Below are positions 5,675 through 22,634 of a stretch of 64,000 nucleotides of DNA, piece by piece. The position numbers and the translations under genes are program-made. This stretch comes from Bacillota bacterium. GTDB taxonomy: Bacteria > Bacillota > Clostridia > Oscillospirales > QAMX01. The notes below the pieces were generated by a model. That model was not told where the DNA came from. It saw nothing but the letters and a program-made list of their open reading frames with translations, and ran no database searches. Positions within the stretch are counted from its first letter, which is position 1. Each line of letters opens with the position of its first letter. The stretch covers positions 43,941 to 107,940 of the forward strand of contig JAPXRI010000005.1 in the NCBI GenBank assembly GCA_033813635.1, in the 5' to 3' direction.

Positions 5675-6781
5675 TCAGTATCTTCCGTACCTATGCGCGG
5701 CGGAATACATCGCCACCACGTTTTCGGCCGGAGTGTTGTCCTGTATCGCGTGTGTCGGCGCGAAGTGGTAGCCGCGCTTTTCCATCATTATCCCGAGGGT
5801 TTCCCGGCAGACCTCCGTGACGTCCTCCGGTGTGCCGTAGGCGAGCGGGCCGGCGGTGGAGATACAGCCGCGGAAATTCAGCCTTCCGCCGAAACGCTCC
5901 GCCAGATGACGGGGGCTCATGTCCGCGGCCTCGGGCTGGAGCGTGTCGACACCGCGGACGCCCATCTCAATAAAATCCTCGTAGACCCAGCTGGAGGAGC
6001 CGCAGGTGTGGATCAGAACGGGTTTATTGTAGGCGTTCGCCAGGTCGATAAAGCGCTTATGTATCGGCTTTAGAACCCTCCTGTACAGCTCAAGGCTGAT
6101 CATCGGGCCGATCTGCGTCCCGAGGTCCTCGCCGAGCCAGACAAAATCGACGCGCTCCCCGCACTTGTCAAGAAGGCGCTCCATATAGGCGAGCTGGAAA
6201 TCTGCACGCCTTCGCATAAACCGCATCGCGGGCGGATGCTCCGTGATCAGGTGGCACAAGACGTCCTCCATGCCCATGATGCGCCCGTTTGAGTTGATCA
6301 CGTCGGGGATCCCCGCACCGCCTATGCAGACGGCATAATCGCCGGCGTTCAGAGCGGCTTCCAGAGCGGCGTCATAGTCGAAATCGTCCGCATTCGGTAC
6401 AGGGTATGTGTCGAACAGCTCATCAGAGGCGTCCTTTAGCGGGAAATCGCAGAAATCCCAGTACTCCCCGGATTTATGCGTGATCTTTCTCATATAACAG
6501 CCCTCGAGCCTGTCGACTCTCCGGCCTTCCCTCTGAGGGAACAGGTCCGGCCCGGTATAGGGCGCGCCGATGCCGCGATAATCCAGACCCAGCGCCTGCC
6601 GGAGCTCCTCGCCGTTATCCGGCGAAATCCCGAGCAGGGCGCACAGCCTTCTGTGTATCCCGGGGTTGACGTCGTAGCCGATCGGCACTCTGTCCGTCTT
6701 TTCGAAGTTGAACGTCCGCAGTACGCGCTCCCTGGATGTCATCGTCTCGGGAGCCTTTTCTATCACCATATGACCGACCAT
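5675..6781 (-). CDS. Uroporphyrinogen-decarboxylase (URO-D) family protein (MtaA/CmuA-like methyltransferase or decarboxylase fold)
   Basis: 368 aa with URO-D-like sequence throughout (FEKTDRVPIGYD..., WLGEDLGTQIGPMIS..., LIHTCGSSSWVYEDFIEMGVRGVDTLQPEA). The start codon is uncertain (M1, M5 or M14). Confidence 0.7.
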   Translation of the reverse strand: MVGHMVIEKAPETMTSRERVLRTFNFEKTDRVPIGYDVNPGIHRRLCALLGISPDNGEELRQALGLDYRGIGAPYTGPDLFPQREGRRVDRLEGCYMRKITHKSGEYWDFCDFPLKDASDELFDTYPVPNADDFDYDAALEAALNAGDYAVCIGGAGIPDVINSNGRIMGMEDVLCHLITEHPPAMRFMRRRADFQLAYMERLLDKCGERVDFVWLGEDLGTQIGPMISLELYRRVLKPIHKRFIDLANAYNKPVLIHTCGSSSWVYEDFIEMGVRGVDTLQPEAADMSPRHLAERFGGRLNFRGCISTAGPLAYGTPEDVTEVCRETLGIMMEKRGYHFAPTHAIQDNTPAENVVAMYSAAHRYGRY

Positions 6782-7977: not shown

Positions 7978-8841
7978 TTATTCGGGCAGGGCGCCCTTGT
8001 GGGCGACGGTCCTGGCGCCGGCGGCGTTGCCCTCCCCGAGCGCCGCGGACAGGTCGCGGGTCGAAAGCCAGGAAGCGAGGAAACCGGCCGAAAAAGCGTC
8101 GCCGGCGCCGACTGTGTCAACCACCGGCGCGTCGACCGCGGGTGAGAACGCGGAGCCGACGTCTCTGCGGTAGGCCGCGGCGCCCTCCTTCCCGAGGGTG
8201 ACGACCACGAGCCTGCAGGGAAATTCCTTAAATATCCGCTCCGCGAACGCTTCCCTTTGCAGGGTCTGTCCAAAGAGCAGGGGGGAGACAATCTCGATTT
8301 CCGTGTCGTTCAGCTTAAAAACAGTGCTGAGATCGATCGAGGAGGCGATGATCTCCCGGTCGAAATAGGCCTTTCGCAGGTTAACATCGAAAAATCTTTC
8401 CGCGTCCGGCAGCGCACCGAGAAGAGAGCGGATCGCGCGCTTTGCCGCATCGCTTCTCTTCTGCGCCAGCGAGCCGAAGACGACCGCGTCCGGCCGGAGC
8501 GCGGAAATTCTTTCAAGCTCGGTTTCCGAAAGGGAGACAAAATCGTAGGCGGCGTTTTCGGGCAGCTCAAAGCGCTCGTTCCCGTCGCGCTCGGGGTGAA
8601 CGACGGCTATCCCCGTTTTGTGGGCGGGGTCTGTTTTTACAAAGCTCCTGTCTATTTTATACCGGTACATTTTCGAGAGCGCGGTCGCGCCGAGAGTGTC
8701 CGCACCGACGGCGGAGACTATGTACGAACGAACCCCGAACCGTGCGAGATGCGCCGCCACGTTGAGCGGAGCGCCGCCGAAGTAATAATCGTCCCCTATT
8801 TTGTCAAAAAGGACCTCTCCGACACAAAACACCCTAAACAT
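7978..8841 (-). CDS. PfkB-family carbohydrate kinase (fructokinase-like)
   Basis: N-terminal CVGEVLFD...GGAPLNVA and C-terminal VDTVGAGDAFSAGF (the PfkB DTxGAGD signature). Confidence 0.8.
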   Translation of the reverse strand: MFRVFCVGEVLFDKIGDDYYFGGAPLNVAAHLARFGVRSYIVSAVGADTLGATALSKMYRYKIDRSFVKTDPAHKTGIAVVHPERDGNERFELPENAAYDFVSLSETELERISALRPDAVVFGSLAQKRSDAAKRAIRSLLGALPDAERFFDVNLRKAYFDREIIASSIDLSTVFKLNDTEIEIVSPLLFGQTLQREAFAERIFKEFPCRLVVVTLGKEGAAAYRRDVGSAFSPAVDAPVVDTVGAGDAFSAGFLASWLSTRDLSAALGEGNAAGARTVAHKGALPE

Positions 8842-8843
8842 AA

Positions 8844-9947
8844 TTATCCGAGCCTTTTCTCCAGTATGCCGTACAGCTCGTCCCTGGTAATGGAGGAAAT
8901 CGCGTTGGAAACGTTTTTAGCGCCGGCCGCTTTATCGGCGTATACAGAGAGAGTCTCACGGTCAAGTTTTAAATTTAGCTTCATCTCCGGGCAGGAGGAC
9001 ACGAGGGAGTAAAGCCCGCCGGCGTTTTCGACGCCGCAGAGCGCGTAAATACGTTTTGCGCGTTCGGGCGCGGTTTTGCCCATGAAGTCGACAAAGTCCG
9101 CGATAAAGTACGCGTTAGCGTTTCCGTGCGGCACGCCGTTGTGGTAAGTGAGCATATAGCCGGTGGAATGCACAAAGCCGGTCCCGGTGCGGGAGATAAC
9201 GATGCCGGCGAGTGTCGAGGCGTAAAGCAGTTCCTCCCTAACGGTGTAGCCGAGGTCTCCGGCGAGGGCGCTGCGTATTCCGGAGCAGAGCGCCGGAATG
9301 CATTTTTCCGCGAGCGCGTCCGAGACAGGGTTTGCCTTTTTCATAAAATACCCCTCGACGGCGTGACAGAGCGCGTCCACCGCGGTGGACATCGTCTGTG
9401 AAAGCGGAAGGGACAGCGTGTAGGCGGGGTCGAGAAACGCGATTCTCGCGTAGAGGTCGTTTCCCGAAAGCGAGCGCTTATTCCCGATTTCCGGAACCGT
9501 GAGGATTGAATACGGCGTGACCTCGCTGCCCGTGCCGGCGGTCGTGTTCACGGCGAGAACCGGGAGTGCTTTTTTTCTCTGCGCGGTGAACAGCTGGTCC
9601 TGCGAAAGCCCGGGATTCGCCGCGAACGCGGCGATGGCCTTCGCCGCATCGAGCGGCGAACCGCCGCCGATGCCGACGTTGAAATCCGCACCGTACTCGC
9701 GCGCCGCTCTTCCGCCCTCGTATGCGGTGGAGACCAGCGGGTTGGGCTCTATTTTATCAAATACCAGATACGCTATACCGGCCTCCGAGAGGCCCTTTTC
9801 CGCATCGGCAAGCGCTCCGGAACGGCGCGCCGAATTCTTTCCGCATACGATCATGCAGCGCTCGCCGAACTGCCTGTAATTTGTAAAGTTTTTAAAGCAG
9901 TCCTTTCCGGATAGTATCGATACTGGGTTGTAAAAATCGATGTTCAT
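8844..9947 (-). CDS. Iron-containing (group III) alcohol dehydrogenase
   Basis: 367 aa with GIGGGSPLDAAKAIA and HSTGYMLT...HG metal-site-like motifs. It lies 2 nt from the downstream kinase gene. Confidence 0.8.
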   Translation of the reverse strand: MNIDFYNPVSILSGKDCFKNFTNYRQFGERCMIVCGKNSARRSGALADAEKGLSEAGIAYLVFDKIEPNPLVSTAYEGGRAAREYGADFNVGIGGGSPLDAAKAIAAFAANPGLSQDQLFTAQRKKALPVLAVNTTAGTGSEVTPYSILTVPEIGNKRSLSGNDLYARIAFLDPAYTLSLPLSQTMSTAVDALCHAVEGYFMKKANPVSDALAEKCIPALCSGIRSALAGDLGYTVREELLYASTLAGIVISRTGTGFVHSTGYMLTYHNGVPHGNANAYFIADFVDFMGKTAPERAKRIYALCGVENAGGLYSLVSSCPEMKLNLKLDRETLSVYADKAAGAKNVSNAISSITRDELYGILEKRLG

Positions 9948-11594: not shown

Positions 11595-12860
11595 ATGGAA
11601 CGCACAGCGCAGAGCGCGTTCGAACGGTTCGACATGTCAAAACGGCCGAAAAGGCAGAGCGTCTACCTGCGTCCGCTGATATGGGCTTTGAGCTACCCCT
11701 CCATCCTGCGCCACAGGGTGAGAATTTCGAGAGTGAATATGGACGGGCAGAAACCGCCGTACCTTCTGCTCTGCAACCACAACGCGTTTTTGGATTTTAT
11801 GGTTGCCACCGCGGCGATATTCCCGCACAGGGCGAACTACGTCGTCGCGATTGACGGGTTTATAAAGAGGGAGCGACTGTTGAGGAGTATCGGCTGCATC
11901 TGTAAACGCAAATTCACCAGCGATACGGTTTTGGTGCGTCAGCTCCGCACAGTGATTGATAACGGCGACATCGCGGTGATATACCCGGAGGCGAGGTATT
12001 CGCTCTGCGGGACTACGGCGGTGCTGCCGCCGTCGCTCGGCAAGCTCGCCAAGTATTTAAAGGTCCCCGTCGTCACGCTTATAACCCACGGGCACCATAT
12101 CAACTCGCCGTTCTGGAATCTTAAGGGGCGGGGAATCAGGACTGAGGCCGTTTTCAAGAAGATCCTGACCGGGGAAGAGGTTGAAAGCCTTACCTCCGAG
12201 GAGATTAACGCGGTGATCAACAGGGAGTTTCAATACGACGACTACAGATGGCAGAAGGAAAACAACATCAGGGTAAGGTATAAAAAGCGGGCCGAGGGGC
12301 TGCATAAGGTTTTATACCAGTGCCCGAACTGCAAAACGGAATACCGAATCACATCCCGGGGGGACAGACTGCGCTGCGGGAGCTGCGGAAAGGAATGGGT
12401 TATGACCGAACTCGGCGAGCTCCGGGCGGTAAACGGCGAAACGGAGTTTTCGCATATCCCGGACTGGTACGAGTGGGAGCGCGCGCAGGTGAGGGCGGAG
12501 GTTAACGAGGGGAGATACGGCATCACCGTGCCGGTGGAGGTTGAATCCCTCCCGAACGCCAAGGGCTTTATACCCCTCGGCAGAGGCGTTTTAACCCACG
12601 ATATGAACGGATTTTTGCTGAAAAGCGAATATCGGGGCGAGCCGTATACGCTGGTAAAGACCGTGAAATCGCTTTATTCCTGCCATATCGAATACAACTA
12701 TCTGGGTAAGCACGGGGATTGCATCGACTTAAATACGCTCAGCGATACTTACTATATCTACCCCCAGGGCTGCGATTTCTCGGTGACCAAGATGGCGCTG
12801 GCTACGGAGGAGCTTTACGCCGCGGCGACGAACAAGGAACGGGCGGCAGTAAAGGCCTAA
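11595..12860 (+). CDS. Lysophospholipid (PlsC-type) acyltransferase family protein with an internal zinc ribbon
   Basis: HX4D motif (CNHNAFLD), IYPEARYS, and a CPNC...CGSC ribbon. The start is moved to ATG 11595, which has GGGGG 7 nt upstream. Confidence 0.7.
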   Translation: MERTAQSAFERFDMSKRPKRQSVYLRPLIWALSYPSILRHRVRISRVNMDGQKPPYLLLCNHNAFLDFMVATAAIFPHRANYVVAIDGFIKRERLLRSIGCICKRKFTSDTVLVRQLRTVIDNGDIAVIYPEARYSLCGTTAVLPPSLGKLAKYLKVPVVTLITHGHHINSPFWNLKGRGIRTEAVFKKILTGEEVESLTSEEINAVINREFQYDDYRWQKENNIRVRYKKRAEGLHKVLYQCPNCKTEYRITSRGDRLRCGSCGKEWVMTELGELRAVNGETEFSHIPDWYEWERAQVRAEVNEGRYGITVPVEVESLPNAKGFIPLGRGVLTHDMNGFLLKSEYRGEPYTLVKTVKSLYSCHIEYNYLGKHGDCIDLNTLSDTYYIYPQGCDFSVTKMALATEELYAAATNKERAAVKA

Positions 12861-12936
12861 AGGTTCGAAAACAGCCGGGCGCGCCTAATTGCGCACACGA
12901 GCACGGAGGCGCGCCTACATGCTCGCATATATAAGA

Positions 12937-12965
12937 GCCCCGCGTCGGCAAGACGCGGGGCTTTG
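12937..12965 (+). terminator. Rho-independent terminator
   Basis: GCCCCGCGTC-ggcaa-GACGCGGGGC followed by TTTGG, downstream of the acyltransferase stop. Confidence 0.65.
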
Positions 12966-13233
12966 GCGTATCGAATCTGCGTTTCACCGTTTTAACAGAT
13001 CCGATGCGCGTTTTTTCAGCGATTCAAGCGAGCTTATTGCTCCGGGACGCGAGGATATCGCGTCCTGTATATTTTCAGGCAGCGAGAGGTAGAATTTTCT
13101 CGCTTCCCGGTTTTTCTTGACCAGCTCGTGAACATCCCTGTAGTTTTCCGTTATATCGCCTCCGATCCGCAGTCAGCATCCGCCCTATATTATTCCCCGA
13201 ACGGGCCGGAATAGTGACGATTCCGGCAAAAAA

Positions 13234-14418
13234 TCAGGAATCCGTATCGAATTTGATGCCGGCTGTGCTGGATAGCAAAAATACCACCGCGATCAGCAGT
13301 ATCCCCGATGAGATCAGAAACGCCGGCTGGAAGCTGTCGTTGAACACGTGGCTGATTACCAGACCGCCCGCGTAGGTGCCGGCGGCGCGGAAAATAGCCT
13401 GTATCACAGTCACCGCGGTAAGGGAGCTCGCTTTCGTCTCCGGCGACGCCGAGCGGGTAAAAAACACCGAGGTGACGAATAAGTTTAAAACGAGAATGCC
13501 GTGCACGAGCGCGAGCCCGAAAAGCCATTCATACGAGGGGACGAGGCAGATATAGAGCTGGCGCGCAAATGAGATGACGCCGACGAACGCGAGCATTTTA
13601 CGCACGCCGATTTTGCGGAGAATCCTGTCGGCGTAAAACAAAAACGGTATTTCAGTCAGCGTGACAATCAGAAGGTAGGTTCCGTAGCTCGAGGCGTTTC
13701 CGCCCAGCTGCGCGAAGTTCAGATAGAAATAGGTGCCCGAGAATCCCCCGGCAAAAGCCGTTAGCGCGAGGTACACCGTCAGACAGAGGACCCCGCGGTT
13801 TTTAAAAAGGCTTTTCAGGTCCGTGCGCGCTTTTTGCGGGATATGCCCTTTTATCTTCGGCACCGAAAACTGGGAGCAGGTCGCCGCCAGAGCAAGCGCC
13901 CCGCAGAGCGGGCCGAACAGCCAGATGTTTTTGTTCAGAATTTGACCGGCGATGAAGCTCATTACCGCCCAGCCTATCGAGCCCATAAGGCGGACCGGAC
14001 CGAACGGACGCCCGTCTTTTTCGAGAATTTCGAGACAGATCGTATCCGATAGCGACAAAACGACGGAGTGGAATAGAGCGAAAATGATGTATACGGAAAA
14101 GATGAAAAAGAAAACAACTCCGGCCGGCGCGCGGTACCACAACAGGACGGTTATCGCGCCGCCGAGATTGCATACGAAAAGGATTTTGTTTTTATATCCG
14201 GATCTGTCCGCTGCCCGGGCCCAGAGCGGCTGGCCCAGCAGCGAGACGGCTGTGCCCGCGGCAATCACGGAGCCGATGCGGGAGGCGTTTAAACCGCAGG
14301 CTTCCATATATTTCTGAAAGTACTGAGATACTACGCAGTCAAAGAAATAACTGAAAAGATACCAGATAAGCAAAATCCGGTATACTCTGTTGCCGTAGAA
14401 CCGTTTTGTCTCCGTCAT
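13234..14418 (-). CDS. MFS transporter, LacY/oligosaccharide:H+ symporter-like
   Basis: 394 aa and about 12 TM helices. The N-terminal pattern (...GSVIAAGTAVSLLGQPLWARAADRSGYKNKILF) resembles the LacY-type GxxxxxxxxxxQPxxGxxxDxxGxxK loop. Confidence 0.7.
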   Translation of the reverse strand: MTETKRFYGNRVYRILLIWYLFSYFFDCVVSQYFQKYMEACGLNASRIGSVIAAGTAVSLLGQPLWARAADRSGYKNKILFVCNLGGAITVLLWYRAPAGVVFFFIFSVYIIFALFHSVVLSLSDTICLEILEKDGRPFGPVRLMGSIGWAVMSFIAGQILNKNIWLFGPLCGALALAATCSQFSVPKIKGHIPQKARTDLKSLFKNRGVLCLTVYLALTAFAGGFSGTYFYLNFAQLGGNASSYGTYLLIVTLTEIPFLFYADRILRKIGVRKMLAFVGVISFARQLYICLVPSYEWLFGLALVHGILVLNLFVTSVFFTRSASPETKASSLTAVTVIQAIFRAAGTYAGGLVISHVFNDSFQPAFLISSGILLIAVVFLLSSTAGIKFDTDS

Positions 14419-14449
14419 ATGTAATCGGTATCTCCGATGGGTTAAGTAA

Positions 14450-15352
14450 TTATGGCAGGACGGCGATGCCGTCTCTTAGATGTTTTTTTACCAGTTCCGT
14501 TTTGCTTTTAATCTCGGCATCGCTCTGGGGCGAGCCGAAATCACGGTAGCGCTTTCCGGCGGCCGCGTATTTGTTTTGCGCCAGATTGTTGTATTTCAAC
14601 AGCTCGACCGCCTTAATGCCGGGGCCGAAGGAGTTAATAAGCGCGGCGGTGCGGACAAGGTTTTCCTCCCCGTCGTTCTGACCCGGAATCAGGGGAATCC
14701 GAATCAAGATATCGCTGTGGGCGGCGGATAAAAACGACAGGTTTTCCAGTATCCGAGCGTTGTCCCGCCCGGTCAGCGCTCTGTGCATTTCGCTGTCGGC
14801 ATGCTTTATGTCGACTATAAAGGTATCGGTAAGGCCGATGACCTTTTTTATATTTCCGGCGGGGACGCAGAGAGATGTTTCCACCGCGGTGTTTATCCCC
14901 GCGTCACGGCATTTTTTCAGCGTTTCGGCGATAAATTCCGGGTATAAAAGGCTCTCGCCTCCGGAAAACGTAACCCCGCCGGAATCGCCGTAGTAAATGC
15001 TGTCCCGCGCGATTTCCTCAAACAACGCCTCCGGCGTCATCTCCTCGCCGCAGAGGACGAGGGCCTCCGCTGGGCAGGCCTCGGCGCAGTTCCCGCAGGC
15101 CGTGCAGCCACGGCGAAGGTATACGGCGCCGCCGTTAGAGATTTTATGGCGGTCAGGGCACAGGGAAATGCAGCGCCCGCAGCGGATGCAGCGGCTTTCA
15201 TGGTACAGAATTTCCGGCTTTCTCCCAATGCCCTCTGGGTTATGGCACCAGGCGCAGCGGAGCGGGCAGCCCTTCAGATATACGACGGTGCGGATCCCCC
15301 GTCCGTCGTGGAGAGAGGCTCTCGCGATGTTGAATACGGGAGCTTTGATCAT
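14450..15352 (-). CDS. Glycyl-radical enzyme activating enzyme (radical SAM)
   Basis: GCPLRCAWCHNPE (CX3CX2C) plus two ferredoxin-like motifs, CIRCGRCISLCP and CTACGNCAEACP. Its ATG overlaps the GRE stop (ATGA). Confidence 0.9.
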   Translation of the reverse strand: MIKAPVFNIARASLHDGRGIRTVVYLKGCPLRCAWCHNPEGIGRKPEILYHESRCIRCGRCISLCPDRHKISNGGAVYLRRGCTACGNCAEACPAEALVLCGEEMTPEALFEEIARDSIYYGDSGGVTFSGGESLLYPEFIAETLKKCRDAGINTAVETSLCVPAGNIKKVIGLTDTFIVDIKHADSEMHRALTGRDNARILENLSFLSAAHSDILIRIPLIPGQNDGEENLVRTAALINSFGPGIKAVELLKYNNLAQNKYAAAGKRYRDFGSPQSDAEIKSKTELVKKHLRDGIAVLP

Positions 15353-17619
15353 ATGCTTCTATGCTTGGTCCGTGCGATGATGTGGTTTTGCAGCTTTTCG
15401 TCCAAAAGGCAGAATTTCTGGCTGAAGCCGGAAACCCTTACGGCGAGGTTCCTGTGCCTGTCGGGGTGCCTTTGGGCGTCGATCAGCGTCTCGGCGTCCG
15501 TGATGTTGAACTGGACGTTGGAAAGCCCCTTTTTCGCCGCGGCGACAAGGATGTCCGCGAGCCGGCCGATATTGCCGTCGTTGAAGAGCAGCGGATCGAC
15601 CTCGATGATGGCCGAGGTTGTCCCAGGTGTGCGGCGGGTGGGCAGCGACGAGACGGAATTGAAAAGCGCGGTCAGGCCCCTGAAGTCCCTCCCCTGCATC
15701 GGGGAGACGCTGTAGGCGAGAATTTCCCCGTTTCGCCGGCCGTCCGGCGTGGCGGCGGTTTTCAGGCCGTGATCGATCATCCAGAGGAAGGTAAACGGCT
15801 GCGCGTGGAACGCGACGCCGCATTCTTCGCTGATCCTATCCAAAACGTCGCAGCAGAAGTCCGTTATCTCGGCGGCAATGGCGTCGACCGCGGGGAGGTC
15901 GTTTCCGTATTTCGGGGCTTTATTCACAAAGTCAAGGCGCATCGCCTCGTCCGGAAAGTTGTTTTCAAGAGCCGAGATCAACTCGGACAGCGTATAGCGC
16001 TTTTTTATGTAAATCAGCTCGTTTACCGCGGCGAGGGAGTCGGCGAGGTTGGGAATGCCGAACAGCATGAACTGGTAGTAGTCGTATTTCGCGCTCCTGC
16101 TGTTAAAGCCCTTGCCGGATTCCATGCAGCCCTCGGTCAGCATCGCCTTATACGGCAGCGGCTCGTTTACGGCGCTCGCGTCAAGGCATCGCAGCGTCAT
16201 GCGGCAGGCGCGCTCGAGCATAAAGCCGATCTGTTCGTACACCGCGGCCTTGAACCGCTCAAAGGTGTCGAGGGACAGCGGGTCGCCGGTCTCAAGGCCC
16301 GGCGAGAGCTCCGGGCGCAGCATGCTTCTGCCGTTTTTCAGCACATACTCAACCGCTTTCAGCACGTTGCAGCGGAGGCTGACGGCGTGCGGGTTGGATT
16401 TTCCGGGTATGACCGTCTCGACGCAGCCTATCTGGGTATAACCCCGCGCGTCCTCCAAAGAGATGCCCCGGGAGACGAGGGATGGAATCATCACGTCGTC
16501 GTTGAAGAAAAACGGCACGCCTTTTTTGCAGCGCCCGACGACCTGCAGCGCCCGCCTGATAAAATCACGCGGCGTGGCCTCCGAGAACCTGACGGACAGG
16601 CACCGTACGAAATCGAGGGCCTCTGTCGCGTCAAGCATCAGCCAGGAGAGGGCGTTGACCGCGTTTTGTCCGGAAGCGTCGCAGCCGCCGACGCAGGACT
16701 GCTGCACGTCGTAATCCCGGTAGAGCTTGATCCACAGGCAGCAGATCAGCTCGAAAGCGTCCCTTTCCGTAAGGACACCTTTCTCTATGTCCGCCCGGTA
16801 ATAGGGGTATAAAATCTGGTCGAGCCTTCCGAGAGAGTTTGCGTTGACACAGTCCTCATAGGTATTGATCATATGCGCAAACCAGAGGCTCTGCACCGCC
16901 TCGGCAAAGGACTCCGCGGGGTGTTCGGGGACCCGCAGGCAGATTCTCTCGATTTCCATCAGCTCTTTTACGCGTGCGTCCGAAAAGCGCCCGCTCTCGG
17001 CGAGTTCGCGCGCTTTAACGGCATAACGCCTGCCGAGATCCGACCCGGCTTCGCAGAGCAGCAGCATCGCGTCGTAAAGGCTTCCCCCGCCGTTTCGCTC
17101 CGCGTATTTTTTCACCTCTTTCGCGATGCCGGAAAAGCCGAGCTTCAGGACCTTTTCGTAGTCGAGAACCGTGTGGTTGTTGGTTACAACGGAGCCCATG
17201 GCCGCCATCTCTTCGACGAGCGCTTTGTCCTTATCGTCCGCTATCGGCTCGGGGGCGATCCGTTTATATATTCTGCGGGCGTCTTCCCGGAATTCAAAGA
17301 AGCTCTCGATCTCGCGCTCGGAAAAACCGCCGCCCAGCAGCTGCTTTCTCGCGGTTTCGGGATCGCCGGAGACGCGCTCGTAATCGCCGAAATTTCGGCC
17401 GACGATCAGCTCGTCATCCCCGATAATTGCGGGAAAGCCGCGGATGACCGAGGCCACGCCGGAGGCGGAGAGATAATCGTTTGTCCGCCTGTCTTCCGGC
17501 GCCTCGCTGATGCCTTTAAAATAGTAGAAATCGCGCTGAGGGGTAATCAGATCGTTATAGCGTTTGCCGTCTACGGCGTCGGCCCGCAGATTTTTGCATC
17601 TTTCCGATAAAGCTAACAT
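15349..17619 (-). CDS. Glycyl radical enzyme (PFL-fold, Cys-x-Glu type), substrate unknown
   Basis: C-terminal glycyl radical motif NLAVRVSGFSQKF and thiyl loop QIGCVETVIPG. I trim the 831-aa ORF to Met76 (ATG at 17619, RBS GGATGGAGA), because the upstream part overlaps the preceding gene. This gives 756 aa. Confidence 0.85.
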   Translation of the reverse strand: MLALSERCKNLRADAVDGKRYNDLITPQRDFYYFKGISEAPEDRRTNDYLSASGVASVIRGFPAIIGDDELIVGRNFGDYERVSGDPETARKQLLGGGFSEREIESFFEFREDARRIYKRIAPEPIADDKDKALVEEMAAMGSVVTNNHTVLDYEKVLKLGFSGIAKEVKKYAERNGGGSLYDAMLLLCEAGSDLGRRYAVKARELAESGRFSDARVKELMEIERICLRVPEHPAESFAEAVQSLWFAHMINTYEDCVNANSLGRLDQILYPYYRADIEKGVLTERDAFELICCLWIKLYRDYDVQQSCVGGCDASGQNAVNALSWLMLDATEALDFVRCLSVRFSEATPRDFIRRALQVVGRCKKGVPFFFNDDVMIPSLVSRGISLEDARGYTQIGCVETVIPGKSNPHAVSLRCNVLKAVEYVLKNGRSMLRPELSPGLETGDPLSLDTFERFKAAVYEQIGFMLERACRMTLRCLDASAVNEPLPYKAMLTEGCMESGKGFNSRSAKYDYYQFMLFGIPNLADSLAAVNELIYIKKRYTLSELISALENNFPDEAMRLDFVNKAPKYGNDLPAVDAIAAEITDFCCDVLDRISEECGVAFHAQPFTFLWMIDHGLKTAATPDGRRNGEILAYSVSPMQGRDFRGLTALFNSVSSLPTRRTPGTTSAIIEVDPLLFNDGNIGRLADILVAAAKKGLSNVQFNITDAETLIDAQRHPDRHRNLAVRVSGFSQKFCLLDEKLQNHIIARTKHRSI

Positions 17620-17695
17620 ATAGAATCTCCATCCTGCCGCGGAGCGGCGATAAACTGAAATAAGCAAAATCAAATTAAACGCCGGGGTGGAATGA

Positions 17696-20173
17696 TTAGG
17701 TTTTCTTCTGTATATTATATTGCCGGGCCCGCATGCCTGTAAAGCCCGAGGGAAGATTTTTTTTGTCATAACGGTTTGCCAGGCTGTTTGTGACGAAAAG
17801 CCTGGCCTCGTTGGCCCCCTGGGTGACGAATCCGGATATATCAAAGGAGAACGGCGGCCAGAAACAGACTCCGGCGTTTTTGCCGTTCACGGTGAGCGCG
17901 CAGAAGTCATGGACGTCCGAGACAGAGAGGCAAACACCGCTGTCCGAGCCGTCAAAACAGAACGTGAACGGGTAGACCACCGTTCCGGCAAAGCCATCCA
18001 TCCCCGGAAGCCCGTTCCAGAGCCCGGGCACGGGGATGGCAAGGGTCTGCCCGCTTTCCGGTACATAGGGTTTTCCGTAGCTGATCTCGAGATCGGTCCC
18101 GTTTTCGCAGACCATAGCCCCGGTCATATCACCCGAGCGGGGAAGGATTTCCTCGCCGTTTGCCAACAATACGGCGACGACGCTCTCCCTTGCGCAAAGG
18201 GAAAGGGGCAGTTCTCCGCAGACAATGGGGCAGACGAGGGACGAGCCACGCCAGGCGTCGAGCAGGAGCGCTTTTTCGCTCTTTTCCCGAATCAGCACCG
18301 TTCCGCGGAACGTGCAGTCGCCCTCGTTGGTGAAGAAGTACGCGATATGGCCGAGATATATCCGTTTTGAGACGCGGATGTTTGGCGAGGGCGGGGACAG
18401 CAATACCGTCGGCGCCAGCCGCGCGCGCTCCACTGCCTCTACCGCGTTGTCGTCGGTGTACAAAACCACGCGGACGCCGCTTTTTTCGCAGAGCTCCCTC
18501 ACCTTACCGGCGAACAGGTCCTCCCGGCATACAATGTTCCGGTAGCTCTGCGACGCGCAGGAGAGCGTGCCGCCGCCCGCCGTGACCGCGCCCTCGTCGA
18601 AAAGAGAAGCCTCCAGATAGTTGAACTCGATCTGTCCGGTATAGAGCGGGATGCAGGGCGCGTAGGGGCAGCCGTCGTCCCCGACGATTACTGCGACCTC
18701 GGAGGTGTTCGACGCGTCTGCGTTAAACGCGCAGAGCCTTGCGGCGTAGTCAGAGAAGAGCTTCATATGGGGCCACCAGAGGTTGTTCGGGCCGACGTCC
18801 GGAGGCCGCTCGCCGGAGCGCTCGCCGCGCACCGAGTAGTAGAACGCGTGCGGCGCGAGCAGATTGACGCCGCGGACAAGGAGCCAATCGGTCAGCCACT
18901 TGATCTCCTCAAAGCGGAGATCCCAGCCGTAGGCGCCGAAGCACTCGTTTAAACTGCGCTTTCTTCCCCTGTGCAGCGCCGCGTCGGCCGAGCATTTGCC
19001 CTGAGTGCTCTGCTCGCCGGCGAGCCCGCAGCCGTATTTTTCGACGAGGGTTACAAGCTTTTTATCGGAGGACTTCTCAAGCGGATTGCCGTTCAGGCGC
19101 CTGCGACCGCCGGAGCTTTCCGGGATCAGGTAACGCCAGACGACGTCCTGCCCCGGGATGCCGAAAAACTTTTCGCTCCGGATATCGTTCCCCGCGTGGG
19201 GGTGGCCGGTCAGCGCGATATTGCGGGAGGTGCACCACCGGGATAAGGGTTTATAATAGGTATCAAGCATCAGCTTGTCGCAAAGGGAGTTCCAGCGGGA
19301 CAAAAGTTCGCCGTTTCTGTCCCATAAACGGCATAGATCCCGCTCATAAATCCCGTTTTTTGACATGAATGACAGCAGGCCGGAGGTCCAGGGCCGGAGC
19401 CCTCCCGGGAAGCCGCGCCCGGTGGGACTCGGCTCGTCCGTGAACATGCCGATAATCGTTTTGCCGAAATGCGGCTTTAAGCGTTCGTAGAACGGGTCAA
19501 ACCCGAGCTCGAGGACCTTTTCCACCGCATTTCTGTTCAAAACATCCGCATAGAGCGGCGGGTTCGCGCCGCTGTCGTCCTCGTCCGGGAAAAGCCCGCG
19601 GATCACTGCCTTTGAGTAGCGCTCGGCAAATACCAAAAGCCTTCGGTCTGCGCCGGAACCGGCGAGATCCGACCTCGCGGAATCAAAATCGCCGTGTATC
19701 CGTATGTCGGTAAACTCCCCGTTCGTTTCGGTCGCCGTCTGAATCGAGACGACCGACAGCACCTCCGAAGAATTTACGCAGGCCTCGGCGTTTTGCGCGC
19801 CCTCACGGGTAAAAATCTGCATCTCCAGCCCTTTATTGGCATATTCCGGGTATTTTTTTGCGACCTCGCCGTGCGCGGAGCCGGAGGGGTAGGAGGCCTC
19901 GTCGTACAGGATGATATACATGCCGTGGGCCGTGGCCTCCTCCGCGGCGCAGTTTATAGGGTCGAGATATTTCGGGGTCATATACCCGATTTCGCGGCTC
20001 ATGCCGATTCTGGGGTGCGGAATAAAACCGTAAAACCCCTTTTCGCGGAATTCCGCGAGCTGGACGACGATCCCGGAGCGGGTGACATTGTCGTTTAAGA
20101 ACCAGAACGGGGCCGGGGAGTACTCCCGCGGCGGGTTAAAAAAGCTGTTCTGAAGCGATGAAATATCCATCAT
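17696..20173 (-). CDS. Signal-less putative glycoside hydrolase (GH106/rhamnosidase-like N-terminal signature)
   Basis: The start is trimmed to MMDISSLQ (RBS GAGGG 7 nt upstream). The N-terminus FFNPPREYSPAPFWFLND...GFYGFIPHPRIGM matches, from memory, the signature of GH106-type uncharacterised glycosidases. The family assignment is unverified. Confidence 0.5.
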   Translation of the reverse strand: MMDISSLQNSFFNPPREYSPAPFWFLNDNVTRSGIVVQLAEFREKGFYGFIPHPRIGMSREIGYMTPKYLDPINCAAEEATAHGMYIILYDEASYPSGSAHGEVAKKYPEYANKGLEMQIFTREGAQNAEACVNSSEVLSVVSIQTATETNGEFTDIRIHGDFDSARSDLAGSGADRRLLVFAERYSKAVIRGLFPDEDDSGANPPLYADVLNRNAVEKVLELGFDPFYERLKPHFGKTIIGMFTDEPSPTGRGFPGGLRPWTSGLLSFMSKNGIYERDLCRLWDRNGELLSRWNSLCDKLMLDTYYKPLSRWCTSRNIALTGHPHAGNDIRSEKFFGIPGQDVVWRYLIPESSGGRRRLNGNPLEKSSDKKLVTLVEKYGCGLAGEQSTQGKCSADAALHRGRKRSLNECFGAYGWDLRFEEIKWLTDWLLVRGVNLLAPHAFYYSVRGERSGERPPDVGPNNLWWPHMKLFSDYAARLCAFNADASNTSEVAVIVGDDGCPYAPCIPLYTGQIEFNYLEASLFDEGAVTAGGGTLSCASQSYRNIVCREDLFAGKVRELCEKSGVRVVLYTDDNAVEAVERARLAPTVLLSPPSPNIRVSKRIYLGHIAYFFTNEGDCTFRGTVLIREKSEKALLLDAWRGSSLVCPIVCGELPLSLCARESVVAVLLANGEEILPRSGDMTGAMVCENGTDLEISYGKPYVPESGQTLAIPVPGLWNGLPGMDGFAGTVVYPFTFCFDGSDSGVCLSVSDVHDFCALTVNGKNAGVCFWPPFSFDISGFVTQGANEARLFVTNSLANRYDKKNLPSGFTGMRARQYNIQKKT

Positions 20174-20254
20174 GCTGCACCCTCTGAATGAAAGACCGCG
20201 ATTTTTAATCGGAAGGATATCCTCGTTTAATAAATTTCCGCAAGCATTGCCATT

Positions 20255-20283
20255 ATCATACACAAAGAGCCCGGCATTGTCAA
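20255..20283 (-). promoter_or_regulatory. Sigma-A-type promoter for the GH-GRE-activase-MFS operon
   Basis: The minus strand reads TTGACA-17 nt-TATGAT, about 80 nt upstream of the GH start. Confidence 0.6.
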
Positions 20284-20396
20284 TCTGACTTGATGCCCCG
20301 GGCTCCGTAAAGCAGCGCGCCGTGGAACTTCAGGTCCGCGGCACGAGCTTGTACCGGAGGATGTCCTCGGTTTTTTTGACTTGGCGAAATTCTGCC

Positions 20397-20867
20397 TCAG
20401 TCGAAAGCCTTGGTGATTTGCCCGACAAGGGCGGTTATTTCCGCTTCCCGTTTTTTCGAGGACCAGTTGATCACGCCGGAGGCGGCGATCTTTGCTCCTT
20501 TATGCGACAGCGCAGAGATAAGCTGTCTGACGGAACCGTTCCCCCCTAAAAACGCTTTGGGAAGCTTATGGGTGACAAAGCATGCGGCTTTCTTGCCGTC
20601 GAGGGCCGGAATACCGGTCAGGTATTGCTGCATCACCAGCGAAAGCCTAAAACCCCACACCGGTGCGGCGAAAACATACCCGTTAAAACCGGAGATATCG
20701 GGGACAGGGAACAGCGTTACGTTGCCCTTTGCGGCCTCGTCCTCGTTCTCTGCGGAAACCCGCAGGATTTCAGCCTCATGGCCGGCGGCGGCAAGCGAGG
20801 CGCAGAGCTTATCTGCGACGGAGAGCGTGTTGCCCGTTTTTGAATGGATCAGCAGCGCAATTTTCAT
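20397..20867 (-). CDS. Flavodoxin-fold protein
   Basis: 156 aa. The N-terminus MKIALLIHSKTGNTLSVADKL matches the flavodoxin phosphate-binding loop S/T-x-T-G-x-T. The RBS is AAGGAG. Confidence 0.75.
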   Translation of the reverse strand: MKIALLIHSKTGNTLSVADKLCASLAAAGHEAEILRVSAENEDEAAKGNVTLFPVPDISGFNGYVFAAPVWGFRLSLVMQQYLTGIPALDGKKAACFVTHKLPKAFLGGNGSVRQLISALSHKGAKIAASGVINWSSKKREAEITALVGQITKAFD

Positions 20868-20999
20868 AGTTTTTTTCTCCTTTTATTTTGATAACTAAAT
20901 TATAGTTTATGGTTTTACGCTTTACAAGCAAATCGCGGGAATTTTATATACGGTCGCGGAAACACTATAGTATATTCCAGCACGAAAGGGAACAAGCTT

Positions 21000-22634
21000 A
21001 TGTCTGTGTTTTCATATATAGCAAAAAAACTCAAATTCTGGAATAGCGGCGGCTTTGAGCAGCGGCAAAAGCGGGGCGACGATGAGGAGCAGCCCAACGG
21101 GACAGGGTACGACGACGGTCCGAGCGGAAAACTGCCGGAAAACGCCACGCTAGATAAAAGCCTCGAAAAAAACGTTCAGATATTTAAACAGATATTCGGC
21201 GAAAGCGGCGATTTCGTCATCAGAGATTTCAGGTTCGGACCCAGCGATACGGGAAAGGGAGCGATTCTATATATCGACGGGCTGGTGAACGCCATGCTTA
21301 TCACCGAAAGCATATTGAAACCCGTTTTGACATTCGCCAGCTATCAGAAACGCTATTCCGGGAATATGATCGACGAGATCAAGGAGAGCGTGATCACAAC
21401 GAGTCAGGTAGAGGACAACCCCTATTTCTCGGAACTGGCAAAGGGGTGCGCCGACGGCGATACCGTATTTTTGTTCGACGGCTACGACAGGGGACTGATC
21501 ATCAACTCAAAGGGCTGGGAACAGCGGAGCGTCGATGAACCACAGTCCGAGCACGTTGTCCGCGGGCCGCGCGAGGGCTTTACCGAAAACCTCAGGACCA
21601 ATACGGCGCTTTTACGCCGCCGCATAAAGACGCCGTTATTTCGCATGGAGCAGATGGTCATCGGCAGACAGACCAAGACAGGCATCAGCATCGCATATAT
21701 CGAGGGAATCGCCAAGCCCGACGTGGTCAAAAAGGTAAAATACAGGCTATCGAAGATCGATGTGGACTCGATAGTTGACTCGGGGTATATCGAGCAGTAT
21801 ATTGAGGACCACCCGTTTTCGATTTTCCCGACGATCGGATACAGCGAAAAGCCGGATGTGGTTGCGGCGAAAATACTTGAGGGCAGAGTGGCGATCGTCG
21901 TAGACGGAAGCCCGTTTGTGCTGACAGTGCCGCTGCTTTTTTACGAAAACTTCCAGGCGTCTGAGGACTATTATATCCGTACGCTGTACGCGTCGACCAG
22001 CAGGATACTCAGATACCTTGCGTTCGCCATTACCGTTCTAGGGCCGGGTGTGTTTATCGCGTTGACGACCTATCACCAGGAGCTGATTCCGACAACGCTG
22101 CTTTTTACCGTCGCCGCGGCGCGAGAGGGGACGCCGTTCCCGGCATTTCTCGAAGCGATTATTATGGTGATGGCCTTTCAGATTATAAGAGAAGGCGGCA
22201 TAAGGCTTCCGAGGCATGTGGGGCAGGCCATCAGCATTGTGGGCGCGCTGGTGATGGGCCAGGCCGCGGTTTCAGCCGGGATTGTCGGCGCGCCGATGGT
22301 AATTATTATCGCGATAACGGCCGTGGCTGAATTTGTCGTACCGAACCTGAACGAATGCATCGCGGTGCTTCGTCTGTTTTTTTTGATTTGCGCCACGGCG
22401 CTGGGCGGTTACGGCCTGACAATGGGAATGATTGCCTTGTTTATCAATATCGGCGCGCTGGAATCCTTCGGCGTAGAATTCTTCAGCGGGTCAAAATCAT
22501 TGCAGGAATATCAGGACAGCTATATCCGCATGCCGCTCTGGTTTATGGAGAACCGGCCGGCGGACATCGCTTCGGGGAATATGAAGAGAAGATCGTTTTT
22601 CAAGCCGCCCGCGCGTCCGAATAAGCAAAAATAA
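21000..22634 (+). CDS. Spore germinant receptor subunit A (GerA/GerKA family)
   Basis: 544 aa with GPREGFTENLRTNTALLRRRIKTP and a C-terminal block of about 5 TM helices, typical of GerAA-type proteins. Confidence 0.85.
   Translation: MSVFSYIAKKLKFWNSGGFEQRQKRGDDEEQPNGTGYDDGPSGKLPENATLDKSLEKNVQIFKQIFGESGDFVIRDFRFGPSDTGKGAILYIDGLVNAMLITESILKPVLTFASYQKRYSGNMIDEIKESVITTSQVEDNPYFSELAKGCADGDTVFLFDGYDRGLIINSKGWEQRSVDEPQSEHVVRGPREGFTENLRTNTALLRRRIKTPLFRMEQMVIGRQTKTGISIAYIEGIAKPDVVKKVKYRLSKIDVDSIVDSGYIEQYIEDHPFSIFPTIGYSEKPDVVAAKILEGRVAIVVDGSPFVLTVPLLFYENFQASEDYYIRTLYASTSRILRYLAFAITVLGPGVFIALTTYHQELIPTTLLFTVAAAREGTPFPAFLEAIIMVMAFQIIREGGIRLPRHVGQAISIVGALVMGQAAVSAGIVGAPMVIIIAITAVAEFVVPNLNECIAVLRLFFLICATALGGYGLTMGMIALFINIGALESFGVEFFSGSKSLQEYQDSYIRMPLWFMENRPADIASGNMKRRSFFKPPARPNKQK

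Follow-up and report, generated by a model that had tools for sequence, protein, structure and literature searches.

An uncharacterised glycyl radical enzyme family with a possible role in sugar catabolism, examined from a five-gene locus of a Bacillota genome

Background

Glycyl radical enzymes (GREs) run major anaerobic reactions of the gut, including trimethylamine, p-cresol and sulfide formation and the use of hydroxyproline. The characterised eliminases are the glycerol, propanediol, 2,3-dihydroxypropane-1-sulfonate (DHPS) and hydroxyproline dehydratases, CutC, IslA/IseG and HpsG, the characterised isomerases are HplG, YbiW and PflD, and whole GRE clades are still without an assigned function (2026 review, PMC13450708). 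Here we analyse a GRE gene that lies, together with genes for its activase, a glycoside hydrolase (GH)-like protein, a major facilitator superfamily (MFS) transporter and a flavodoxin-like protein, on a 64,000-nucleotide (nt) stretch of a Bacillota genome (contig JAPXRI010000005.1), which is referred to as the window. A reading made from the sequence alone had proposed that these genes form an undescribed catabolic unit, in which a glycoside is imported and hydrolysed and one of the products is handed to the radical enzyme.

By sequence, the closest described enzyme is glycerol dehydratase (PDB 1r8w), followed by propanediol dehydratase (5i2a). Both share with the window GRE the PFL-like barrel, the glycine loop, the Cys-x-Glu loop and a separate three-cluster activase, and the catalytic glutamate, the acid histidine (His164/His166) and Tyr339 are retained in the window enzyme. 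It differs from them in its modest scores (333 and 308 bits, respectively), in the replacement of His281, Ser282, Asp447 and Tyr640 by Asn, Ala, Val and Phe, in the lack of a microcompartment or aldehyde-processing context, and in belonging to a family of which most members are fused to a DNA-binding domain. The Escherichia coli GRE isomerases YbiW and PflD, which in 'anhydroglycolysis' open 1,5-anhydroglucitol-6-phosphate and 1,5-anhydromannitol-6-phosphate, provide the closest functional analogy (PMC13450708). Among characterised PFL-like GREs only these two have sugar substrates, and they combine a Cys-x-Glu loop with C-O cleavage next to a carbinol. Their product feeds an aldolase, and aldolase genes adjoin the family GRE at two of the loci surveyed here (L066 and L076). 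The PflD model is among the best NCBIfam equivalogs for the window GRE (336 bits against a cutoff of 1109), whereas the genomic context of the window family consists of glycosidases and transporters outside the phosphotransferase system. The window GRE is a member of neither group.

The GH-like protein resembles the GH106 alpha-L-rhamnosidases (BT0986, PDB 5mqm; Novosphingobium PP1Y, PDB 6q2f) in fold, N-terminal motif and C-terminal jelly roll, but it shares only ~14-15% identity with them, is shorter by ~280 residues and cytoplasmic, scores under the GH106 cutoff of Pfam, and falls in an uncharacterised clade of ~820-residue proteins. PutA and Ada are examples of trigger enzymes and enzyme-fused regulators. 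Most relatives of the window GRE likewise join a catalytic and a DNA-binding domain and appear to control their own operon, while the window copy is without the domain. To our knowledge, no radical enzyme has been described as a trigger enzyme or fused regulator. A full-text literature search found no description of this GRE family or of an AraC-GRE fusion, and the 2026 review makes no mention of glycoside, DNA-binding, helix-turn-helix or fusion (PMC13450708).

On balance, we lean towards the view that the window GRE uses radical chemistry to break a C-O bond in a single substrate of sugar origin, and that at this locus it has been recruited downstream of the gene for a GH106-like glycosidase. 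The clade to which it belongs is large, largely from gut and rumen Clostridia and repeatedly found in glycan-degradation operons, and assigning it a function would bring a radical step into the anaerobic breakdown of carbohydrates. The DNA-binding domain and the conserved promoter box of most members offer a practical route to the substrate that bypasses in vitro enzyme activation. The locus is also a caution for annotation, as a tidy four-gene operon turns out to be a lineage-specific assembly around a portable two-gene module.

Methods

Window coordinates refer to the 64,000-nt stretch, in which the cluster occupies 13234-20867 on the minus strand. The window GRE was scored against the NCBIfam equivalogs HypD, CutC, HpsG, HpfG, PflD and the indoleacetate and hydroxyphenylacetate decarboxylases, and active-site positions were mapped through a HMMER alignment onto glycerol dehydratase (1r8w). 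Neighbourhood counts refer to 80 listed genome loci, each taken with as much as 10 kb of DNA per side, and to about 160 related loci when contigs are included; individual loci carry L numbers. Conservation of the GH-GRE-activase-MFS unit was examined using tblastn and phmmer over the latter set, and the neighbours in the 80 genome loci were also clustered all-against-all.

Results and discussion

Gene content of the cluster

Open reading frame (ORF) calls give five co-oriented ORFs on the minus strand at 13234-20867, in the order, strand and coordinates reported by the sequence-only reading:

20867..20397, minus strand: flavodoxin-like gene, 156 amino acids (aa), with an AAGGAG ribosome-binding site
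20176..17696, minus strand: GH106-like gene, 826 aa (public gene callers start it one Met later, giving 825 aa)
17619..15349, minus strand: GRE gene, 756 aa, with PFL-like and Gly_radical domains
15352..14450, minus strand: activase gene, 300 aa, TIGR02494
14418..13234, minus strand: MFS gene, 394 aa, MFS_1_like type

The gaps are 76 nt from GH to GRE, -4 nt from GRE to activase and 31 nt from activase to MFS; the activase ATG overlaps the GRE stop (ATGA), as had been described. The cluster genes are presumably co-transcribed.

The glycyl radical enzyme and its activase

The window GRE matches both Pfam domains expected of a PFL-fold enzyme (PF02901 PFL-like, 412 bits; PF01228 Gly_radical, 71 bits) and carries the motifs RVSG731F and G-C399-V-E401, which confirms its assignment as a Cys-x-Glu GRE. 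The protein begins at the conserved core and is without a fused DNA-binding domain. Scores against the equivalogs of characterised GREs range from 210 to 341 bits, with cutoffs of 1000-1150, and the protein also falls below the PFL2-3 subfamily cutoff (TIGR01774, 415 vs 678 bits). Among solved structures, HpyG (302 bits) ranks next after the two diol dehydratases, and PflD and YbiW score 277 and 240 bits. Identity with any characterised GRE was rejected on these NCBIfam and PDB scores, and the earlier reading is supported in this respect, as the GRE stays below every characterised-equivalog cutoff.

Comparison of the active site, which had been suggested as a check, reveals that 4 of the 8 mapped positions differ from glycerol dehydratase. 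His164, Tyr339, Cys433 and Glu435 are retained (as His149, Tyr303, Cys399 and Glu401), while His281, Ser282, Asp447 and Tyr640 are altered (to Asn259, Ala260, Val413 and Phe609). Propanediol dehydratase has His, Ser and Asp at the first three of these altered positions, unlike the window GRE. All eight are invariant within the GRE family, and Gly731, Cys399 and Glu401 are likewise invariant across 25 aligned members with a mean identity of 59%. In the loss of water catalysed by glycerol dehydratase, Glu435 serves as the base and His164 as the acid (PMC13450708). Given these roles and the retention of both residues, we infer that the window GRE is an eliminase or isomerase that would cleave a C-O bond next to a carbinol. 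Because its pocket is unlike that of the diol dehydratases, its substrate is probably not simply glycerol or 1,2-propanediol but something other than a simple C3 diol.

The activase scores 316 bits against TIGR02494 (cutoff 174) and has the CPLRCAWC motif and two CxxCxxCxxxC motifs (residues 29, 55 and 83), i.e. the three clusters previously attributed to it. It is predicted to be a radical S-adenosylmethionine enzyme with two extra ferredoxin-like clusters. In about 62 of the 80 genome loci, the gene that immediately follows the GRE encodes a homologue of this activase.

Family distribution and conservation of the gene neighbourhood

Relatives of the window GRE were found in 214 species genomes and 220 metagenome contigs. 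In a protein search, a single identical sequence was followed by many closely spaced full-length relatives with 54-63% identity; over the protein, genome and contig searches together the range is 51-63%. Nearly all of the listed genome loci are metagenome-assembled genomes of uncultured Clostridia from animal and human guts. The family is thus large, uncharacterised, and found mainly in uncultured gut and rumen Clostridia.

Conservation within this family is confined to the GRE and its activase. Relatives of the window GH-like protein occur within 10 kb in 4 of the 80 loci; these are 23-35% identical, are not orthologues and, where gene order is listed, do not occupy the adjacent co-oriented slot. 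No homologue of the window MFS lies near the GRE in any of the 80 loci, and a homologue of the flavodoxin-like protein is absent both from these and from the wider set of about 160. A homologue of the window MFS follows the GRE-activase pair in one other contig (L174). Besides GRE and activase, no neighbour family is present in more than 6 of the 80 loci; a further conserved partner gene was rejected on this clustering, and two of the recurrent neighbour clusters correspond to spoIVB and spo0A, which belong to the genomic backbone of a single clade. A conserved GH-GRE-activase-MFS unit was rejected over the wider set. The proposal of an import-hydrolysis-radical-enzyme unit as a conserved system therefore fails on its own proposed check, conservation of the GH and MFS association in related genomes, given the counts for GH (4/80, non-orthologous), MFS (0/80) and flavodoxin (0/80).

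In one clade (L013, L014, L017, L052, L067 and L080) a fused GRE gene and its activase gene are found near sporulation genes, with spoIVB upstream (directly so in L014, L052 and L067) and spo0A a few genes downstream in L014 and L052. The GRE-activase pair looks like a stand-alone insertion there.

Fusion to an AraC-type domain and a conserved promoter box

An N-terminal AraC-type domain of ~110 aa (PF12833/PF00165) is fused to the GRE in 69 of the 120 top proteins and in 60 of about 80 genome loci, giving single polypeptides of ~870 aa (L002, L005, L007-L019 and many more). Distant environmental clades (38-48% identity) are without the domain. In the gut clade, copies with and without the domain are intermingled on a rough neighbour-joining tree, which indicates repeated loss or gain of the domain.

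Fused genes are preceded by a spacer of 90-500 nt that carries the conserved box cGCAAttTTGGAGTAGA. The sequence GGAGTAGA is present in 22 of 60 upstream regions, compared with 2 of 326 controls, and TTGGAGTAGA is found, with up to 2 mismatches, in 45 of the 60. The box ends ~17-20 nt upstream of a TATAAT-like hexamer, beside the -35 position, which is where class II AraC-type activator sites lie; upstream of the fused GRE at L013:9662-12262 it lies ~57 nt before the start. A position weight matrix scan of 1.9 Mb produced 65 box matches: 54 immediately precede fused GRE genes, and the majority of the others precede split domain ORFs, or genes for solute-binding lipoproteins at the head of operons in which the fused GRE comes last (L039 and L058). 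Fused members are probably self-regulating enzymes, and the box their putative operator.

The box is absent near the window cluster, where the best score is at most 2 bits compared with a median of 29 for true sites. The AraC-like genes in the window are at 46.7 and 58.3 kb, more than 25 kb from the cluster. Both a nearby AraC regulator and a copy of the family's operator box were rejected on these grounds.

Unfused copies in carbohydrate operons

Unfused copies mostly start 26-102 nt behind a co-oriented gene, as in the window. Their partners are as follows:

Window: GH106-like protein
L086: GH78-like protein and GDSL esterase
L087: GH125-like protein
L059: GH78 and RpiB-like isomerase
L054: GH92 and RpiB-like isomerase, with GH78 downstream
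L060, L061: GH76-like protein
L108-L110, L120: GH127 and PfkB kinase
L076: GH38, D-lyxose/mannose isomerase and class II aldolase
L020: heparinase II/III-like protein
L066: class II aldolase
L006: SIS protein
L117: AGE-like epimerase
L057, L122: solute-binding lipoproteins
L175: AEC permease
Window, L174: MFS transporter
L093: fucose-isomerase-like and apiosidase-like proteins
L030, L031, L104: GH28 directly after the activase (also in L033, where the GRE is fused)

By manual count, a GH or polysaccharide lyase is present in the co-oriented upstream run in 9 of 31 distinct unfused contexts. About 16 of the 31 are evident sugar operons, and the rest contain housekeeping or other genes (BipA, ArgRS, an AAA protein and others). 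GH38, GH28, GH2 and GH78 also recur around fused copies. Two themes are recurrent: a rhamnose-rich pectin theme (GH78, GH106-like, GH28, GH127, GH2, apiosidase-like proteins and GDSL esterases) and an alpha-mannoside theme (GH38, GH92, GH76-like and GH125-like). The carbohydrate link claimed for the window GRE is supported for the family by its recurrence in carbohydrate operons, which suggests that its substrate is related to sugars.

The GH106-like protein

By sequence, the GH-like protein matches PF17132 at 25 bits (cutoff 29), over residues 14-90 only, and the jelly-roll model NF045579 with an E-value of 1e-9. Thousands of ~820-aa proteins from Paenibacillus, Bacillus and Clostridia match it over 98% of its length at 35-39% identity, and most of them are annotated PF17132 (GH106). 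The AlphaFold (AF2) model, for which 30 homologues were used, has a pLDDT of 85 and a pTM of 0.87. In a Foldseek search of the PDB its three best matches are GH106 rhamnosidases (E 4e-39 to 7e-37, TM-score ~0.68), including 6q2f (4e-39) and BT0986 (2e-37), while other glycosidase folds match at ~1e-11. The model points to a (beta/alpha)8-type glycosidase fold with a C-terminal jelly roll and to a distant, shorter, cytoplasmic GH106-like protein that is a candidate glycosidase. The label 'glycosidase-like' given by the sequence-only reading consequently stands at the level of fold and is sub-threshold by sequence; its statement that the protein is signal-less agrees with our search for a signal peptide, which found no hydrophobic N-terminus. 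Acidic residues D92, E93, D247, E248, E411 and E456 are invariant in the clade of this protein.

Two GH relatives whose surroundings were examined have sugar-binding proteins, Gfo/Idh/MocA oxidoreductases, AP_endonuc_2 proteins and AraC regulators as neighbours, and no GRE. At L169:3693-9424, a 37%-identical relative of the GH106-like protein is encoded beside a sugar-binding protein, a xylose-isomerase-like AP_endonuc_2 protein, DUF6807, a Gfo/Idh/MocA oxidoreductase and an AraC regulator. This gene set is reminiscent of oxidative glycoside-cleaving systems.

The transporter, the flavodoxin-like protein and syntenic relatives

The best model for the MFS protein is the generic MFS_1_like (PF12832, 130 bits). 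It reaches 41 bits against the galactoside permease model NF007077 (cutoff 429) and is also far below the cutoffs of SetA and HcaT, and the description 'LacY-like' is less well supported than the earlier reading had it. The same is true of the flavodoxin label. The phosphate-loop motif SKTGNT is present, but the protein scores below threshold against Pfam Flavodoxin_1 (21.5 vs 25 bits, E 2.7e-4) and TIGR01753 (21 vs 123), and matches to flavodoxins in the PDB are weak (E about 2e-4) and limited to the N-terminal half. This flavodoxin-fold protein may supply the activase with electrons.

When the MFS was used as the query, only two relatives at least 61% identical were returned, in L171 and L174. 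In L174 the order of a GRE fragment, activase, MFS and small ORF is that of the window, and the 31-nt gap between activase and MFS is shared; identities to the window are 77% for the GRE fragment (residues 479-754), 60% for the activase and 61% for the MFS. In L171 the MFS (63%) has gerA (64%) on one side and, after it, the small ORF and a nicotinate phosphoribosyltransferase (NAPRTase, 85%), and flavodoxin, GH, GRE and activase are absent. L171 therefore represents the window backbone without these four genes, from which it follows that the 6.4-kb block is an insertion or a deletion. Codon composition shows that the GC content and third-position GC content (GC3) of the block are similar to those of its flanks, and a recent horizontal acquisition was rejected for this reason. 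In both L171 and L174 a 56-aa ORF comes after the MFS, and the small ORF downstream of the MFS in the window (12990-13148, minus strand, ~53 codons) is 43-47% identical to it at the amino acid level by tblastx. The window version is without an ATG, GTG or TTG start and has a GGAGG site followed by ATA.

Promoter-like sites and flanking genes

The following signals were located in and around the cluster:

20899..20927, minus strand: promoter-like TTGTAA-17-TATAAT, 10/12 matches, upstream of the flavodoxin-like gene
20283..20255, minus strand: promoter-like TTGACA-17-TATGAT, 11/12 matches, upstream of the GH-like gene
17743..17714, minus strand: promoter-like TTTACA-18-TATAAT, 11/12 matches, within the 3' end of the GH gene and upstream of the GRE
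12936..12962, minus strand: terminator-like GC-rich hairpin, 11 pairs with a weak T tail, the first strong minus-strand hairpin downstream of the cluster

A motif scan gave 6 promoter-like sites in the cluster region compared with 3.5 expected, and each is therefore weak evidence by itself; this includes the TTGACA-17-TATGAT site, which is present where it had been reported. The site at 17743..17714 is consistent with separate transcription of GRE, activase and MFS, in the gene order also seen in L174. A riboswitch or other leader RNA element was ruled out, as an Rfam search of 12800-21100 returned no elements at E up to 0.1.

The flanks are unrelated to the cluster, with NAPRTase and acyltransferase genes on one side and a gerA-type germination operon on the other; from the latter it follows that the host is a spore-forming Firmicute (~55% GC). 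Proteins identical to those of the cluster occur only in metagenome assemblies.

Proposed mechanism

The core of the locus is a two-gene radical module of GRE and activase. By analogy with characterised Cys-x-Glu GREs, the activase, possibly reduced by the adjacent flavodoxin-fold protein, would cleave S-adenosylmethionine and place a radical on Gly731. The radical would move to Cys399, which would take a hydrogen from the carbinol carbon of the substrate; Glu401 would deprotonate the hydroxyl on that same carbon, and His149, the counterpart of His164, would protonate the leaving group on the neighbouring carbon, so that the C-O bond breaks. The outcome may be dehydration, ether cleavage or ring opening. 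The substrate would be a hydroxylated, imported, sugar-derived small molecule tied to the breakdown of pectin-type (rhamnose-rich) and mannose-containing glycans.

Unfused copies, including that of the window, appear to have been placed downstream of other genes and to borrow their regulation. In the window, the module, without domain and operator, would have come to lie behind the GH106-like gene and before an existing MFS gene. Locally, a plausible pathway would begin with uptake of a rhamnoside-like glycoside or of its sugar, continue with trimming by the glycosidase and end with conversion of one of the products by the GRE. GREs are usually narrow in substrate range (PMC13450708), and many GH families adjoin members of this GRE family; the product of the neighbouring GH is therefore not the GRE substrate as a general rule. 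The earlier proposal that it is cannot be upheld family-wide, but it may hold at the window locus. Narrow specificity alongside so many GH families instead argues that the GRE family has a single substrate shared by the operons, rather than each glycosidase supplying its own.

A further-reaching proposal, which we regard as doubtful, is that the substrate of this family is a neutral sugar or glycoside without a phosphate group, set free when pectin or mannan is broken down, which would be a first for a GRE. The reaction would be a radical dehydration or the cleavage of an ether or glycosidic C-O bond. Under the same proposal the enzyme would, in most members, also be the transcription factor, a substrate-sensing AraC-GRE 'radical trigger enzyme' that turns on its own operon via the box.

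Alternative explanations

A number of observations weigh against a sugar-directed enzyme recruited behind the glycosidase gene. The activase is the sole conserved partner of the GRE, the GH, MFS and flavodoxin associations of the window are essentially unique, and L171 shows the MFS persisting without a GRE. The sporulation-gene clade has no adjacent carbohydrate genes in L014, L052 and L067. The neighbouring glycosidases span at least 10 families although GREs are usually substrate-specific, and the internal promoter-like site at 17743..17714 permits separate expression of GH and GRE. Furthermore, GHs are common in these genomes and their enrichment was judged without a computed background rate, and the tree on which repeated gain or loss of the domain rests is a rough one.

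Among the alternatives, chance juxtaposition fares best, and we consider it possible if improbable. Here a mobile GRE-activase module, whose substrate is unrelated to the GH106-like protein or the MFS, would have landed or been retained between gerA and the MFS gene. In its favour, L171 has the order gerA-MFS-small ORF-NAPRTase and lacks the block, the neighbours of the module are highly variable, and in one clade the module is placed between spoIVB and spo0A. Against it, a large glycosidase-like gene is found immediately upstream and co-oriented in several independent lineages (window, L086, L087, L020 and L060), and in other loci sugar isomerases, kinases and aldolases adjoin the GRE. The GRE has an independent promoter-like site, and relatives of the GH in Bacillus, Paenibacillus and Clostridia occur without a GRE; against this, the MFS of L174 follows the activase with an identical gap of 31 nt, and the GC3 of the block is not distinct from its flanks and so gives no sign of recent foreign origin.

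A diol dehydratase that operates without a microcompartment is unlikely. It would take a rhamnoside through L-rhamnose to 1,2-propanediol (or glycerol) and on to an aldehyde, which an alcohol dehydrogenase would reduce. The nearest solved structures are those of glycerol and propanediol dehydratases and the Glu/His dyad is retained, but the scores are just ~310-330 bits and His281, Ser282 and Asp447, kept in both dehydratases, are Asn, Ala and Val family-wide; with four pocket residues changed, a simple diol dehydratase was set aside as unlikely. Rhamnosidase families (GH78, GH106-like) recur near the family, and in L066 the gene before the GRE encodes a class II aldolase of the RhaD/FucA type, whereas mannosidase operons, from which no propanediol arises, make up many of the contexts. 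A candidate reductase, an Fe-alcohol dehydrogenase, is encoded at 8844-9947, 3.3 kb off, but two unrelated genes stand between it and the cluster, and aldehyde dehydrogenase, phosphotransacylase and shell genes are lacking nearby. In agreement with the earlier reading, no microcompartment or aldehyde dehydrogenase genes were found within about 8 kb, and such domains are absent from the genes at 916-24955.

That the family is primarily regulatory, with the GRE domain sensing anaerobiosis or a ligand for the AraC-type domain and the window copy a degenerate remnant of little catalysis, is very unlikely: most members are fused and have the conserved box at their own promoters, and AraC-type regulators are the commonest separate neighbours (10 of 121), but the catalytic Gly, Cys, Glu and His are invariant, fused and unfused copies alike have a dedicated activase, nearly all boxes in the scanned DNA are at the module's own promoter and so indicate self-control rather than a regulon, and the window copy is full-length and conserved without domain and box.

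Additional observations

Several loci contain a second, shorter GRE (~650-790 aa) within a few kb of the family GRE:

L002:14560-16515, with its own activase alongside
L013:6482-8596, with its own activase alongside
L017:6604-8550, with its own activase alongside
L020:4177-6243
L025:4286-6412, with its own activase alongside
L026:3525-5510
L040:4772-7138, with its own activase alongside
L095:179-2152
L148:7672-9819

These proteins score 108-232 bits against the window GRE, have the glycine motifs RIGGYS, RVSGWN, KISGYS, RLYGFS and RIHGTF, and look like further uncharacterised GRE clades. At L072:6365-19799, five ~700-aa paralogues without a Pfam match and an AEC-type permease flank a fused GRE-activase pair; the paralogues may constitute an undescribed glycan-active family.

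In the window, two antisense ORFs, 15361-16812 (plus strand, 483 aa) and 16873-17610 (plus strand, 245 aa), overlap the GRE gene and are read as by-products of the high GC3 (0.77), the Pfam-supported GRE being on the opposite strand. The Fe-type alcohol dehydrogenase gene forms a pair with a PfkB sugar kinase gene (7978-9947, minus strand), 3.3 kb past the MFS on the same strand and separated from the cluster by the NAPRTase and acyltransferase genes; a PfkB kinase gene also immediately precedes the GRE in L108-L110. A URO-D-like gene (uroporphyrinogen decarboxylase/methyltransferase type) lies at 5675-6781 on the minus strand, and URO-D-like proteins make up 3 of the 112 neighbours of the distant environmental GRE clades (L126-L168).

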